Source of the DNA: an uncultured Candidatus Saccharibacteria bacterium
Lineage (GTDB): Bacteria; Patescibacteriota; Minisyncoccia; Phycocordibacterales; UBA918
DNA: 37,738 nucleotides
Assembly: GCA_964637855.1 (NCBI GenBank)
Contig: CAZWXM010000005.1
Location: 1 to 37,738, forward strand
Reading direction: 5' to 3'
Below are positions 5,972 to 37,738 of the stretch, one piece after another. The notes under the pieces were generated by a model. That model had not been told where the DNA came from. It saw only the letters and a list, made by a program, of their open reading frames with translations, and searched no databases. Numbering within the stretch: the first letter of the stretch is position 1; each line of letters starts with the position of its first letter. The translations under genes were made by a program, and so were the position numbers.

Positions 5972-7060
5972 ATGTTCGCAAAACCAACAATTTTAGTTGG
6001 CTCTTTGCAACGAGTGGTCGCGACACTTGTTGCATGTTCTGTAATTGCCGCATCAATTGGGATGTACGCACGCACAGCGCAAGCAGCTAGCCTCACTTTT
6101 ATTAGTGACACATTAAGTACTTCGAATCCTGGTGTAACGTCAGCCCATACATTGGCTTTCACTATTCCAGCCGGTTCAGCTCTAACGAACTCTGACACTG
6201 TAACAATTACATTTCCAGCCGGTTTTACTGGAGTGAACACAGTTGTAACAGGTGACATTAGCGTAACTGCTAGTGGTACGCCAGATGCGCACGCAAACTT
6301 TGCGGCGGGGGCTTCAACTATCTCATTTAACAGTGTTGCAGCAACAGCTGGACAAGAGGTAATCGTCGCGATTGCTAATGGAAAAATTACTAATCCGGGT
6401 TCAATCGGTTCATACCGAATTGGAGTTAATACCGGAGCTACCACTACTGATTCAGGAAACACAGAAGTAGCTGTAGTAGATACAGTACTAGTTACAGCTG
6501 TCGTAGAAACAACCTTTACTTTTATAGTGAACGGTACTGCTACGACTACTTCTGTAAATGGAGATAACTCAACTGGTTCTACCACTGCCACACAAATTCC
6601 GTTCGGTACTCTTACAGCTGGTGTATCTGAGCTATTGGCTCAACAGCTAACTGTAGCTACTAACGCTATTCATGGGTTCTCAGTTACGGTGGAAACAGAC
6701 GGAAATCTACAATCAGCTAACGGAGCGATTATCGATAACTTCGTTGAAGGTAGTGACGTAGCTGTAGCTGGCACACCTTGGGCAGCACCTGTAACAGATA
6801 TTAACGATGCTACAACCTGGGGACACTGGGGTATGACTTCTGACGATACAGACTTAGCTAACGACCTTGACACAGCTGATTCATATATCGCAGCTTCAAC
6901 TACACCACGTGAAATCTTTAGTCATGATGGACCGGCCGATGCTACAACTCAAGATGTTGGAAAGGCAATTGTCGGTTATCAGATTGAAATTTCAGCCCTG
7001 CAAGAAGCGGCTGATGATTATCAAACAACACTAACCTACATTGCTACTCCTACTTTCTAA
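5972..7060 (+). CDS. secreted T/A/V-rich surface protein; N-terminal module shared with the 8725 gene, C-terminal half possibly WxL-like
   Basis: Long signal peptide ending AQA|AS. The module SDTLSTSNPGVTSAHTLAFT...VTITFPAGF parallels KDVLSDSGPLENSNHTLSFQ...FEITPPNGF in the 8725 protein. The C-terminal half (IPFGTL...LTVATNAIHGFSVTVE...DDYQTTLTYIATPTF) resembles the WxL-domain layout, with Y in place of the final W. Preceded by a 346-bp AT-rich region and followed by a strong terminator. Confidence 0.7.
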   Translation: MFAKPTILVGSLQRVVATLVACSVIAASIGMYARTAQAASLTFISDTLSTSNPGVTSAHTLAFTIPAGSALTNSDTVTITFPAGFTGVNTVVTGDISVTASGTPDAHANFAAGASTISFNSVAATAGQEVIVAIANGKITNPGSIGSYRIGVNTGATTTDSGNTEVAVVDTVLVTAVVETTFTFIVNGTATTTSVNGDNSTGSTTATQIPFGTLTAGVSELLAQQLTVATNAIHGFSVTVETDGNLQSANGAIIDNFVEGSDVAVAGTPWAAPVTDINDATTWGHWGMTSDDTDLANDLDTADSYIAASTTPREIFSHDGPADATTQDVGKAIVGYQIEISALQEAADDYQTTLTYIATPTF

Positions 7061-7080
7061 GTTAAGTACGTAGTAAAAAT

Positions 7081-7110
7081 AAAGACCTCTCCTTGGAGAG
7101 GTTTTTATTT
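7081..7110 (+). terminator. Rho-independent terminator
   Basis: CCTCTC-CTTG-GAGAGG stem-loop, extendable by flanking A/T pairs, followed by TTTTTATTTT, about 20 nt after the stop at 7060. Confidence 0.8.
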
Positions 7111-7181
7111 TGTGTAGACAACCTGATTTTAGGTTAATTAAAATGATATTATGTCTAGATTAATAATTTTCTTGTTTAGTT

Positions 7182-8273
7182 ATGATTTCACTCCCGGTTT
7201 GTAAAATGAAAAACCTGCTTAAGTTTATAGCTTTTATTATTATAGGTTTTTCTAGCTTTTATTTTTTATTGAATAATGCTTACGCCCAAGAGTCAGGGGT
7301 TACTATCAGACCAGCTACTAATGGTGGAGTAAATCTAGATCCTGGTCTAAATAAAAACTACACAATTAATGTCGAGAATTTAAATTCAACCGACCAAACC
7401 TATTACGTATTTTCTAGAAATATTTCTGGCTCCAAAGATGGAGGAATTCCTGTATTTGCAAATAGTAATCAGGAGAAAACAGGGATGGAAATTTCTGATT
7501 GGATTACTATATCGGCTACACAAATTACTATTCCAGCTAAAGGAAATGCCACGCTTGATTACAGTTTAAATGTTCCAACTAATGCTACTCCCGGTACACA
7601 CTTAGGAGCCATCTTCTTTTCGGTAGAACCACCGGAGATAGAAAATAGTGGTGCGGCCGTTGGTTATCAGGTGGCTCATATTGTTGATGTTAGAGTCTCG
7701 GGAGATATTGTTGAACAGGGAAGTATTAGGCAATTTTCGACCAGTAAGTTCTTATATGGTTCATCTAAGGTAAATTTCTTAGTGAGAATTGAAAATACTG
7801 GAAACGTCATCATTAAGCCAAGAGGCCCAATGGAAATTCGTAACATGTTGGGTAATAAAGTCGGGCTACTGATTTTTAATGATAATGAATCAAGTGTCTT
7901 GCCACATGAGACAAAAGAGTTTTCCGGAATTGAATGGACGGGTAATTCAACTGGTTTTGGACGTTATGAGGCAGTTTTGAGTCCAATCTATGGTGAAGAT
8001 GGTGCCCGAAAGACTATGTCCAGTACAGTTAGTTTCTGGATACTCCCGATGAATATTATTGGTCCCGCTTTAGGTATCCTGACCTTCATTCTAATTGTTA
8101 CGTATCTATTTGTACGGATTTACATCAAGCGTTCAATTCAGCACCTAAATCATGAACGAAGAATGATAAATCGTAAGCGAAGAGGTGGTTCTTCTACTAC
8201 CTTAATCCTCACTTTAGTAATGTTAACTGTTACTGCCTTGTTCTTGATTGTTTTGTTGGCACTTTTCGCTTAA
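7182..8273 (+). CDS. cell-surface protein with a DUF916/DUF3324-like (WxL-interacting-protein-like) two-domain layout and a C-terminal TM anchor
   Basis: The likely true start is ATG 7206 (MKNLLKFIAFIIIGFSSFYFLLNNAYAQ signal peptide). Two beta-sandwich-like halves: LDPGLNKNYTINVENLNSTDQ...ITIPAKGNATLDYSLNVPTNATPGTHLGAIFF, and VNFLVRIENTGNVIIKPRG...LPHETKEF...GRYEAV. These are followed by a TM, a basic stretch and a second hydrophobic tail. The family call is by pattern only. Confidence 0.65.
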   Translation: MISLPVCKMKNLLKFIAFIIIGFSSFYFLLNNAYAQESGVTIRPATNGGVNLDPGLNKNYTINVENLNSTDQTYYVFSRNISGSKDGGIPVFANSNQEKTGMEISDWITISATQITIPAKGNATLDYSLNVPTNATPGTHLGAIFFSVEPPEIENSGAAVGYQVAHIVDVRVSGDIVEQGSIRQFSTSKFLYGSSKVNFLVRIENTGNVIIKPRGPMEIRNMLGNKVGLLIFNDNESSVLPHETKEFSGIEWTGNSTGFGRYEAVLSPIYGEDGARKTMSSTVSFWILPMNIIGPALGILTFILIVTYLFVRIYIKRSIQHLNHERRMINRKRRGGSSTTLILTLVMLTVTALFLIVLLALFA

Positions 8274-36494: not shown

Positions 36495-36499
36495 AATAG

Positions 36500-36541
36500 T
36501 TATCCACACTTATCCACAACCAGAATAAATATTGTGTATAA
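36500..36541. promoter_or_regulatory. cluster of DnaA-box 9-mers (two perfect tandem TTATCCACA plus one inverted TTATACACA)
   Basis: TTATCCACA at 36500-36508 and 36510-36518 (10-bp phasing). TGTGTATAA at 36533-36541 is the reverse complement of TTATACACA. The outer sequences also form a 14-bp imperfect inverted repeat, AATAGTTATCCACA / TGTGTATAACTATT. Confidence 0.45.
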
Positions 36542-36602
36542 CTATTAAATCGACTTAATATTATAGGTACAATGTAGTTAAGTTAGTTATTTATTTATTA
36601 TT

Positions 36603-37738
36603 ATGACGTACAAACACGTAGAATTTCCAAAATATGTTCGCACTGCCGGAAAAGTAACCATCCTTACAGCCATAACTGGTCTTTTGGTGTTTATCTTTGC
36701 CTTTGCCATTGATGTCGGAACAAAAGAGTTAAGTAAAGTGTCGGCTCAAACTGCTACTACCACTTTAACAGTGTTGAATACCCCTCCAGTCTTTACTGTT
36801 GGTGCGTATGAAATAGCTGAATCCTCAACTTCAACTCCAACCAACTCAAGTAGTCTTGTTAGTTGGGGAGCAGTTGGTACAGATGCTAACGGTGCCAACT
36901 ATTACCTACTTGTCTGTAGTACTAATGCAACTCCAACTCCAAACCCATCAGCTGCCCCAGTTTGTGGCGGTGGAGTACAATGGGGAGTTTCTACCTCTAC
37001 TATCAGTGGAACTCAGGCCTACGTAGCTACTACAACTACTGAAGCAGCTCCATTTGCAGAACAAAATAACTGGTATGCGTGGGTATGTGACGGTGACTCA
37101 GTTGATCCAAGATGTTCAATAACTCCTGTTCAAGGTATCAATGCTACCAACTCATCACCTTTCTTTGTTAATAAGCGTCCAGTATTATCAAGCTTCGATA
37201 ATGATGGTCCAGCCAATCCAGGTGCTGTAATAAACTTCTACTCAACCTCAACTGATCCAGACGTTGTGGATACTGAAGATGATATATATCTAATTGTTTG
37301 TTCAGGTACTGATTACAGTACTACTACTAATACTTGTGCTTCCTTAATTTCTTCTACTACCGTTGGTGTAACGGCTGATGCTTCTGCTTCTTACACACTA
37401 CCAGCCATCATTAGAGATGATGCCTATCCAGCTTATGGCTATATAGTAGATGAACATGGGCATGAAGCTACAGCTAACCCAATTCAGCAGGACTTTACAG
37501 TAAATAACGTAGCTCCGACAGTTTTGGGTGGCGATATTGACTTAAATGGTGGTCTTGACATGACACTTACTATTCCAGCCGCCGAAACAACTGGATTCAC
37601 CTTAGGTTTTACAATCAGAGATGCTAACAGTTGTCTTACAGCCGCTTCAACTAGTGAAATCGTTGGTTATAATGTCTCAGTCTTTAGATCAAGTATTGGT
37701 ACTTCAACCTGTGATGCGACCGCTGGTTCATATGATCC
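36603..37738 (+). CDS. 5' part of a further membrane-anchored T/S/A-rich, Cys-containing surface protein (runs off the window)
   Basis: ATG 36603, open to the window end (378 codons) and so absent from the ORF track. MTYKHVEFPKYVRTAGKVTILTAITGLLVFIFAFAI is a signal anchor. Recurring ...YLLVCS/YLIVCS...C...C modules follow. Confidence 0.7.
   Translation, partial: MTYKHVEFPKYVRTAGKVTILTAITGLLVFIFAFAIDVGTKELSKVSAQTATTTLTVLNTPPVFTVGAYEIAESSTSTPTNSSSLVSWGAVGTDANGANYYLLVCSTNATPTPNPSAAPVCGGGVQWGVSTSTISGTQAYVATTTTEAAPFAEQNNWYAWVCDGDSVDPRCSITPVQGINATNSSPFFVNKRPVLSSFDNDGPANPGAVINFYSTSTDPDVVDTEDDIYLIVCSGTDYSTTTNTCASLISSTTVGVTADASASYTLPAIIRDDAYPAYGYIVDEHGHEATANPIQQDFTVNNVAPTVLGGDIDLNGGLDMTLTIPAAETTGFTLGFTIRDANSCLTAASTSEIVGYNVSVFRSSIGTSTCDATAGSYD

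Follow-up and report, generated by a model that had tools for sequence, protein, structure and literature searches.

The DNA analysed here is apparently one whole contig of 37,738 nucleotides (CAZWXM010000005.1 of assembly GCA_964637855.1, from an uncultured Candidatus Saccharibacteria bacterium of the GTDB lineage Patescibacteriota, Minisyncoccia, Phycocordibacterales, UBA918), hereafter the window, in which genes are named by their first coordinate. Positions 5972-12679 of its + strand hold a six-gene operon that encodes, in this order, a pilin-like protein, a WxLIP-type chaperone, a 133-aa membrane protein, a pilin N-terminal domain (NTD) joined to a dockerin, an Hsp20 and a cohesin anchor. 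We lean, with limited confidence, towards the reading that this operon, widely conserved among the ultra-small Patescibacteria (class Paceibacteria), builds a chaperone-assisted filament, made with neither usher nor sortase and anchored through a cohesin-dockerin pair; the pilus-type nature of the system is more likely than the cohesin-dockerin anchoring step. The operon is related to the Pam pilus of CPR (candidate phyla radiation) bacteria and to the WxL/WxLIP surface clusters of Firmicutes. Its nearest relatives are found in metagenome-assembled genomes labelled Paceibacteria, Kaiserbacteria, Nomurabacteria or Parcubacteria, and a more distant member of the pilin family comes from Jorgensenbacteria.

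An initial annotation of the sequence had read the eleven successive + strand genes from 5972 to the end of the window as one island of secreted, membrane-anchored or envelope-acting products, perhaps a non-covalently assembled, sortase-independent apparatus with a cohesin anchor and docked subunits. The eleven open reading frames (ORFs) and the short gaps between them (8-121 bp) were confirmed, and all Pfam domain calls were reproduced above cut-offs. Co-directionality is nevertheless not distinctive of an island, because 16 of the 17 ORFs in the whole window lie on the + strand and the GC skew is positive throughout; the window ends inside gene 36603 and the island is therefore truncated. 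The whole 32-kb island is not one uniform system: the idea of a non-covalent apparatus holds for 5972-12679, where gene order in distant relatives speaks for it, and fails for the WxL subunit that had been part of it.

Conservation and composition of the operon

The close set of relatives came from one scan of species-representative genomes, which found relatives in 206 genomes and from which 80 loci with pilins 41-61% identical were retained; the distant set comprises 42 loci of 8 kb or more on metagenome contigs, carrying a pilin subgroup about 35-40% identical to 5972. Wherever the DNA was long enough, the order in the close set was invariant: pilin, chaperone, small protein, dockerin protein, Hsp20, cohesin anchor and giant gene. 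The chaperone gene lies within 5 kb of the pilin gene in 63/69 close and 49/54 distant loci and is followed by a homologue of the small membrane protein in 64/80 and 27/42, respectively; the cohesin gene comes after the dockerin gene in 41/41 close and 10/12 distant loci, with the Hsp20 gene between them in 37/41 and 10/12, and no more than 3 kb separates the cohesin gene from the start of a giant-gene homologue behind it in 20/23 close loci. The close set by itself is unable to define a functional unit, since the upstream UmuC (68/80), S24 and CAP genes are equally syntenic in it. Near the 42 distant pilin loci none of the upstream CAP, S24, GH18 and UmuC genes was found; the order of the operon is nonetheless kept. 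That this order outlasts the loss of upstream synteny is our main evidence for 5972-12679 being one functional unit, with the left boundary where the initial annotation had set it. Pfam confirms the dockerin, cohesin and WxLIP_PGBD domains in the distant orthologues, whose operons are often expanded, with 2-3 pilin genes, three paralogues of the chaperone and an FGE-sulfatase-like protein, and giant DUF2341-type proteins stand on one flank or other of these distant operons too. The MacB-type ABC genes further downstream are syntenic at the family level only.

The first gene (5972-7060, + strand) encodes the candidate for a Pam-like major pilin, of 362 aa. Its AlphaFold2 model, built on 49 homologues (predicted local distance difference test, pLDDT, 82.8), begins with a signal helix and has exactly nine strands within residues 42-168, where pLDDT exceeds 90; a linker modelled at low confidence, whose one strand spans 184-191, leads to a beta-rich, Ig-like C-terminal domain (CTD) at 220-360. 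In an NCBIfam scan residues 205-362 gave a weak, sub-threshold match to NF058581, CPR_Pam_pilin_C (21.8 bits, E 1.6e-4), a model that was matched by 33 of 51 diverse members of the pilin family at 20-41 bits (best 41.3 bits, E 1.5e-10); the family alignments cover the entire model of 148 positions and end on the final residue of the protein. Across the family, which numbers 646 clusters at 50% identity (E <= 1e-3), conservation in bits per column is 1.76 for the NTD, 2.46 for the linker, 2.57 for the CTD and 3.26 for the last strand, so that the linker and CTD are the best-conserved parts, above all the C-terminal strand ending ...ATPTF. In Pam pilins, too, conservation is highest in these two parts (bioRxiv 10.64898/2026.03.03.709456). 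Single-sequence and profile searches of 5972 against PDB sequences returned no meaningful match. By architecture and CTD sequence 5972 is a remote relative of the Pam pilins, and by the curated threshold it is not a member of their family.

Directly 3' of the pilin gene, a hairpin at 7076-7111 (16-bp stem, free energy -19.3 kcal/mol, z -4.0) followed by a U-run forms an intrinsic terminator or attenuator (7076-7119, + strand). A hairpin with a T-run, of differing sequence, is present within 130 nt of the pilin stop codon in 71 of 76 relatives; behind the other operon genes such elements were found in 14-27%. From 7182 to 36494 the window contains no strong terminator comparable to the one behind the pilin gene. 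The AT-rich intergenic spacer of 346 bp upstream (5626-5971, + strand) is the presumed promoter region, and the several weak sigma-70-like sites in it do not exceed the expectation from shuffled sequences. This layout, in which the major subunit has an attenuated unit to itself and a long second unit runs downstream, is typical of pilus operons such as pap and fim. The dedicated terminator behind 5972 points to a high-copy structural subunit.

The second gene (7182-8273, + strand) encodes a WxLIP-type, two-domain chaperone-like protein that matches Pfam WxLIP_PGBD/DUF916 (PF06030) with 35.2 bits against a cut-off of 27.3. Its AlphaFold2 model (pLDDT 84.4, predicted template-modelling score, pTM, 0.71) shows two beta-sandwich domains followed by two C-terminal transmembrane helices. 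The top Foldseek matches are the E. faecium WxLIP structures 9i1y and 9i25, the latter a WxLIP bound to a long WxL protein (E about 1e-11), in alignments of about 266 columns that span both domains; next come CfaA, CupB2, Caf1M, PapD, CsuC, FimC and DraB (E 1e-10 to 1e-7, TMt about 0.5). At the sequence level the profile of the 7182 family found EfmWxLIP1 as its sole significant match in the PDB (E 2e-4), and neither Pfam nor the PDB profile search returned a chaperone-usher chaperone. The protein had been described as DUF916/DUF3324-like; Pfam supports the DUF916 half, and the DUF3324 half is visible by structure only. WxLIP proteins consist of DUF916, DUF3324 and a transmembrane helix, and are predicted to insert a beta-hairpin strand into their WxL partner (PMC10599100), while PamC and PamD of the Pam pilus are PapD/FimC-like chaperones with a C-terminal transmembrane helix that work with no usher or ATPase (bioRxiv 10.64898/2026.03.03.709456). 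Protein 7182 is thus truly homologous to WxLIP; its fold is PapD-like, it is tethered to the membrane, and it fits the published description of PamC/PamD.

Gene 8283 (8283-8684, + strand) encodes a small membrane protein of 133 aa with no family match. Its hydrophobic, transmembrane-like segments at 9-27 and 97-115 are separated by a charged, heptad-like stretch that reads as an apparent coiled coil, and with its C-terminal transmembrane segment it occupies a position analogous to that of CscD, the small LPXTG-anchored protein of the WxL/Csc clusters. The next product, of 625 aa (8725-10602, + strand), combines the pilin NTD, a Gly/Ser-rich spacer, Ig-like domains and a type I dockerin, and is our proposed filament-to-anchor adaptor. 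It shares with the pilin the NTD alone, linker and CTD being absent: BLASTP aligned the N-terminal modules of 5972 and 8725 at 30% identity over 76 aa (E 9e-6), and the hidden Markov model (HMM) of the pilin family matches residues 18-147 of 8725 (E 3e-11) and finds in the window only 5972 and this NTD. Its dockerin scores 38.9 bits with Pfam Dockerin_1 (PF00404; cut-off 22.9) and is made up of two near-identical Ca-loop repeats, DLNRDGKVNLTD and DINRDGKVSLTD, at nt 10441 and 10534. Both the module common to the two proteins and the dockerin had been recognised in the initial annotation, and both stood; the WxL-like C-terminus suggested for 5972 did not, for it has no Pfam or PDB profile match. 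Neither 5972 nor 8725 matches a WxL domain in Pfam at E <= 0.1, and the pilin profile found nothing among PDB sequences, though that set should include the long WxL partner in 9i25. As read from the translation, with no motif search, the C-terminal tryptophans of 5972 sit in W-G-H-W-G-M, not in W-x-L.

The last gene of the operon (11141-12679, + strand) encodes a membrane anchor with a signal peptide, a cohesin domain, Ig-like domains, a transmembrane helix and a cytoplasmic tail of 85 aa. Pfam Cohesin (PF00963) matches residues 47-168 with 30.5 bits (cut-off 24.1) and its orthologues with 33-42 bits; Big_13 is matched as well. The transmembrane helix at 409-427 is followed by the charged, heptad-like tail, an apparent coiled coil by inspection. 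The initial annotation's call of a membrane-anchored cohesin protein was confirmed. The window contains exactly one dockerin, in 8725, and one cohesin, in 11141. The gene between these two (10666-11130, + strand) encodes a cytoplasmic Hsp20/alpha-crystallin protein (Pfam HSP20, 35.9 bits) with no signal peptide and no transmembrane segment, at odds with the claim that all eleven products of the island act at the envelope. Possibly this protein binds the cytoplasmic tail of 11141, or it may simply share the regulation of the operon.

Further observations concern the same genes. The signal region of the pilin (5972-6085, residues 1-38) shows unusually high conservation among close relatives, with M1, V16, A17, L19, A38 and A39 invariant and the consensus ...QRVVATLVACAVV...TAQAA, which may reflect a dedicated recognition or processing step. 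Family members P0275, P0284, P0305, P0324 and P0379 are fusions of 570-1,022 aa that carry a complete pilin module at the C-terminus behind other domains, a layout reminiscent of the two-part tip adhesins of chaperone-usher pili, and the 51 scanned members include one choice-of-anchor B match and one match to the TafC fimbrial model. Antisense to the pilin gene and overlapping it is a minus-strand ORF of 216 aa (5941-6591), most likely no gene, whose richness in V, T and A is what the reverse complement of a T/A/V-rich coding region would give. Many relatives have, between the genes of the small membrane protein and of the dockerin protein, an insert that is absent from the window and consists of 1-4 paralogous membrane-anchored proteins of ~270-300 aa (FGE-sulfatase-like where tested), often with a type I ABC exporter (ABC_membrane+ABC_tran), as in L033 (12702-17917), L024 (16106-19569), L021 (8869-11447), L103 (14192-15085) and L175 (14708-15568); this insert may point to post-translational modification of filament subunits. 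The Kaiserbacteria relative L024 has in addition an ORF of 1,067 aa between the pilin and chaperone genes (11162-14362).

Proposed assembly and alternative readings

From the domain and fold assignments, the topology predictions, the conserved gene order and the terminator we infer the following sequence of events. The 362-aa pilin would be produced in excess from its own transcription unit, closed by the terminator or attenuator, exported via Sec and cleaved after the conserved ...TAQA motif, and the exported subunit would be captured and held by the membrane-tethered, WxLIP/PapD-like 7182. Polymerisation could then proceed by donor-strand exchange, the linker strand of one subunit entering the incomplete Ig-like CTD of the next, with growth from the base; the conservation of linker and CTD above all other pilin regions lends this step indirect support. 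Protein 8725 is proposed to sit at the cell-proximal end of the filament because it has the pilin NTD and lacks an acceptor CTD, and its dockerin would dock in the 11141 cohesin, so that the filament is held at the membrane by a substitute for PamR. The giant, N-terminally anchored protein encoded next would be a fibrous adhesin in its own right, of a kind regularly found beside such operons. A secreted protein with fibronectin type III (FN3) repeats and a MacB-type ABC pair separate the operon from a second, paralogous pilus module; on the evidence of synteny only, the giant adhesin, the FN3 protein and the ABC pair may cooperate in attachment.

The second module lies past the end of the window and is visible in seven relatives, where the giant gene is followed by the FN3 protein, the ATPase, the permease and a homologue of 36603. 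It comprises a 318-aa chaperone-like protein, a 374-aa protein with Big_6 and a dockerin, a pilin paralogue matching NF058581, a transmembrane protein of ~350 aa, an anchor with cohesin, Big_13, transmembrane helix and coiled coil, and another small dockerin protein. The recurrence of pilin, chaperone, dockerin and cohesin in a paralogous module provides independent support for a tie between the filament and the cohesin-dockerin pair.

Several findings weigh against such a filament. With its 21.8 bits 5972 stays below the NF058581 cut-off of 55, which no scanned family member attains. Foldseek returned for the 5972 model only generic two-Ig-domain adhesins and pilins, with TM scores of about 0.2-0.25, because the Pam cryo-electron microscopy structures are absent from the PDB set that was searched. 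The window lacks both PamT, the CTD-only tip of the Pam pilus, and a PamR-like terminator; PamR has two FN3 domains, an N-terminal donor strand and a C-terminal transmembrane helix (bioRxiv 10.64898/2026.03.03.709456), unlike the sole FN3 protein of the window, 32326, which has four FN3 repeats and no C-terminal transmembrane segment. The filament model does not account for a cytoplasmic Hsp20 conserved within the operon, and the ABC pair is linked to it by synteny only, which in this clade extends to unrelated genes as well. Moreover, a non-polymeric surface complex is possible, since WxLIP proteins have so far been known as holders of WxL proteins that are not filamentous.

As far as the extent of the system is concerned, it is conceivable, if somewhat doubtful, that independent units have merely been kept adjacent by the conservative gene order of a small genome, so that an operon of pilus type stands beside a giant adhesin and beside an ABC transporter of MacB/Lol-like housekeeping character with an FN3 protein, and the first six genes only constitute a system. 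The upstream S24, UmuC, CAP and GH18 genes, unrelated to the operon, are as syntenic in the close set as those of the island; none of the 42 distant loci has a MacB-type permease within 10 kb of the pilin, the pair of the window itself being 27 kb away; the C-terminal extension of the ATPase has no detectable link to a pilus component; and in one relative (L092) the ABC genes look fragmented while the adjoining modules are intact. Against this stand the FN3, ATPase, permease and 36603-like genes between giant gene and second module in 7/7 visible relatives, the giant DUF2341-type proteins beside the operon in distant lineages also, and the lack of any strong terminator between 7182 and 36494. 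The giant protein, the FN3 protein, the ABC pair and gene 36603 are syntenic within the family only, and a single machine that includes the ABC pair and the FN3 protein would be possible, though unproven, on this family-level synteny.

We consider it unlikely that the operon forms a WxL-type, non-filamentous complex, in which 7182 would display monomeric 5972 and 8725 by insertion of a beta-hairpin and the cohesin-dockerin pair would offer a second display point, with no pilus. Such a complex would agree with the WxLIP homology of 7182, evident in both sequence and structure, with the prediction that WxLIP proteins keep WxL proteins at the surface by strand insertion, and with a loose parallel to CscA-D, where a single WxLIP likewise accompanies two proteins of unequal size with a common module and a small anchored protein. 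However, 5972 and 8725 have neither a WxL domain nor the dual W-x-L motif and no LPXTG protein accompanies them, their common module is N-terminal and not C-terminal, the CTD of 5972 matches the Pam pilin model and not WxL, and the dedicated terminator suggests a structural subunit made in many copies. A cellulosome-like complex for capture or degradation of polysaccharides, to which the upstream GH18 would contribute, is very improbable: for it speak the cohesin and the type I dockerin, a GH18 gene 2.3 kb upstream, the lectin-like DUF2341 modules of the giant protein and a former proposal that Csc clusters use plant glycans, but the sole dockerin of the window belongs to the pilin-NTD protein, no catalytic domain, GH18 included, carries one, and GH18 is gone from the vicinity in 42/42 distant loci that retain the operon.

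A sortase-assembled pilus of the Gram-positive kind was rejected, since the scanned ORFs of the window include no sortase and the island proteins no LPXTG motif (LP.[TSA]G), in line with the initial annotation. Nor did any scanned ORF match an usher or another beta-barrel family. In the closest NCBI relative (L003, 1-1750) a sortase gene stands behind that of a 1,584-aa LTD/DUF642 protein, some 9 kb upstream of the pilin genes; the clade thus does have sortase-dependent display, with no linkage to the operon.

Relation to described surface systems

The statement that no described system has this combination is outdated, the Pam pilus (bioRxiv 10.64898/2026.03.03.709456) and the WxL/WxLIP clusters (PMC10599100) being clear relatives. 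Pam pili, with the pilins PamA and PamB, were described in Ca. Mycosynbacter amalyticus, a saccharibacterium (Troman et al., bioRxiv 10.64898/2026.03.03.709456). Compared by description, the pilin of the window agrees with theirs in being CPR-restricted and Sec-exported and in its build, an NTD of nine strands that a linker joins to an Ig-like CTD. Both systems also encode beside the pilin a PapD-like chaperone with a C-terminal membrane tether, in an operon with no usher, sortase or dedicated ATPase and with large fibre-like proteins in the neighbourhood; a "tail fibre-like protein" is mentioned for the pam neighbourhoods (bioRxiv 10.64898/2026.03.03.709456). They differ in the host, which is Paceibacteria here and Saccharimonadia or Microgenomatia for Pam. 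The window has one pilin and one chaperone, though distant relatives have 2-3 of each, and its chaperone has two transmembrane helices, not one as in PamC/PamD. Unlike the pam loci, the window adds the pilin-NTD and dockerin protein, the cohesin membrane anchor, the embedded Hsp20 and the 133-aa membrane protein, and it has no ATP synthase, CorB or MFS genes nearby. The Pam preprint makes no mention of WxL, DUF916, cohesin, dockerin, Hsp20 or a membrane protein of the 133-aa type (bioRxiv 10.64898/2026.03.03.709456).

With the WxL/Csc clusters of Lactobacillales and Listeria (PMC10599100) the operon shares the WxLIP homologue, which agrees in length and in the layout of two Ig domains and a membrane anchor, and the set of a small and a large secreted protein with a common module plus a small anchored protein. 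The window differs from these clusters, which contain two or more proteins ending in a WxL domain with its dual Trp-x-Leu motif, in having no WxL domain or LPXTG motif, in the Pam-pilin-like partner of its chaperone, in a CPR and not a Firmicute host, and in the cohesin-dockerin and Hsp20 components of the operon. The likeness to chaperone-usher pili (Pap, Fim, Caf1, CFA/I, Csu) extends to the two-Ig-domain fold of the chaperone, the conserved C-terminal strand of the pilin, the terminator or attenuator behind the gene of the major subunit and, in relatives, the fusions with extra N-terminal domains; it ends at the outer membrane and usher, which are missing here, at the membrane anchorage of the chaperone and at the additional N-terminal domain of the pilin. 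CPR cells are monoderm-like. No sequence similarity of the pilin or chaperone of the window to chaperone-usher pilins or chaperones was detectable. As in the cellulosomal pairs of Clostridia, with their type I dockerins, a canonical duplicated Ca-binding dockerin and a cohesin, both above the Pfam cut-offs, are encoded two genes apart; unlike those pairs, they come with no enzymes and no carbohydrate-binding scaffoldin, the cohesin being part of a bitopic membrane protein and the dockerin of a pilin-related one.

The locus is, therefore, a variant of the just-described Pam/WxL-type filament, to which it adds a proposed cohesin-dockerin anchor, an Hsp20 and the link between WxLIP and Pam; none of these three (anchor, embedded Hsp20, WxLIP-Pam connection) was found in the literature searched. 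It is tempting, although we give it little credence as a whole, to join all these elements in one broad picture: a donor-strand-exchange pilus would be held at its base by cohesin and dockerin and not by a covalent or usher anchor, Hsp20 would bind the tail of 11141 and connect the filament with the cytoplasm, and together with the giant adhesin, a mechanotransducing MacB-type ABC pair and the second pilus module these would make up one host-attachment apparatus of ~50 kb specific to Paceibacteria, while Pam pili and the WxL/WxLIP clusters of Firmicutes would both descend from a single ancient chaperone-subunit system of monoderm envelopes that had no usher.

Attachment to other microbes is the presumed way of life of Patescibacteria, and little is known of the machinery behind it beyond a few cultured Saccharibacteria. 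Our locus extends the Pam-type filament, described in 2026, to a second large class, the Paceibacteria, and the WxLIP homology of its chaperone joins two surface systems so far discussed apart. Cohesin and dockerin would here be used outside the cellulosome context and, if the model is correct, 7182-5972, 8725-11141 and Hsp20 with the tail of 11141 are the candidate pairs of interacting proteins. Being highly conserved and probably very abundant, the pilin is also a possible marker for proteomics, cryo-electron tomography and host-range work on uncultured Paceibacteria.

Downstream and flanking genes

The proteins encoded after the operon largely conform to what was first reported for them, a giant N-terminally anchored protein of about 6507 aa, a protein with four FN3 repeats and a MacB/FtsX-type ABC pair whose ATPase has an unusual extension. 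The giant ORF (12727-32316, + strand) encodes 6,529 aa from a TTG and 6,507 aa from the first ATG, with a single N-terminal transmembrane segment at 51-69 and an acidic spacer. Residues 806-1190 (15142-16296) hold repeats of ~110 aa with five HxH motifs, each repeat pairing an "I-x-M-W ... P-x-G-W" motif with G-G-x-x-H-T-H-T. These residues resemble phage tail-fibre modules in the look of their motifs, with no profile or PDB match. Windowed BLAST showed that a module of ~680 aa occurs twice (1163-1845 and 2296-2960, 50% identical), self-BLAST of the whole protein having listed no internal repeats, and about 2,800 residues of degenerate repeats fill positions 2900-5750. Pfam recognises DUF2341 three times and Ig_Rha78A_N twice; nothing was found by searching both halves against PDB sequences at E <= 0.1, and nothing significant by PHROGs on five segments or by permissive Pfam on three HxH repeats. 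Most simply, the protein is a fibrous adhesin.

The secreted protein with four FN3 repeats (32326-33858, + strand) matches Pfam fn3 and Pur_ac_phosph_N, and the repeats align with one another; a homologue is encoded next after the giant gene in L093 and in the same position in the other six relatives examined. The ABC ATPase (33928-35250, + strand) has a nucleotide-binding domain (NBD) scoring 107.9 bits with ABC_tran, with DarD, LolD, FtsE and MacB as best NCBIfam and PDB matches; the top PDB matches of the NBD include the uncharacterised ABC ATPase 5xu1, YtrE, BceA, MacB and LolD. Its permease (35259-36494, + strand) combines a MacB periplasmic core domain (MacB_PCD, 63.3 bits) with a four-helix FtsX transmembrane module (60.9 bits). 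Against NCBIfam equivalog and exception models both proteins fall far under the cut-offs (for example LolC/E 88 versus 362 bits, FtsX 39 versus 225), and the permease is MacB/LolC-like rather than FtsX-like, the pair being equivalent to no named system among MacB, LolCDE, FtsEX, DevCBA and BceAB. It resembles the type VII transporters of the MacB/LolCDE/FtsEX type in having a separate NBD and permease with these two modules, and differs from them in the C-terminal extension of ~210 aa on the NBD and in that no adaptor, outer-membrane factor or hydrolase partner was recognised. The extension has no Pfam or significant PDB match, and PADLOC gave generic NBD matches only; a match to bL20 in the PDB (E 0.02) was judged to be chance. 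Most of its 115 homologues are at least 51% identical, and their sources are all of one kind; by this sequence distribution the extension appears to be clade-specific. As a guess, the pair and the FN3 protein might serve extracytoplasmic mechanotransmission or the extraction of surface components. In the metagenome contig L092 (1645-4176, 10527-11192), where the ATPase and permease genes look split, a gene of the 23S_rRNA_IVP family and a Y1 transposase are inserted nearby; the fragments could represent decay or a sequencing or assembly error.

The last ORF (36603-37738, + strand) is the 5' part, 378 codons, of a further surface protein cut by the contig end, with an N-terminal transmembrane segment at 18-36, eight Cys and only a weak TadE-like match at the N-terminus. 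Full-length homologues measure about 620 aa, and the HMM also matches a 1,947-aa DUF2341 protein upstream of distant pilin operons.

Upstream of the island lie genes for a CAP-domain protein, a UmuD-like S24 peptidase, a GH18 protein, a minus-strand NUDIX protein and UmuC. The CAP and GH18 genes are placed outside the operon, since neither adjoins any of the 42 distant pilin loci. An Rfam scan of the whole window yielded no family reaching its gathering score, and an ORF of 150 aa at the left end (125-577) has no Pfam match. The CAP/SCP-domain protein (815-1993), with hydrophobic regions at both the N- and the C-terminus, and the GH18 protein (2491-3717), with an N-terminal hydrophobic segment, look envelope-like. 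The genes of the UmuD-like S24 peptidase (2023-2487) and of the UmuC/DinB-family polymerase (4372-5625; IMS, IMS_C, DUF4113) are split by the GH18 gene and the antisense NUDIX gene, an arrangement kept in most close relatives (UmuC in 68/80 loci, S24 in 59/80).

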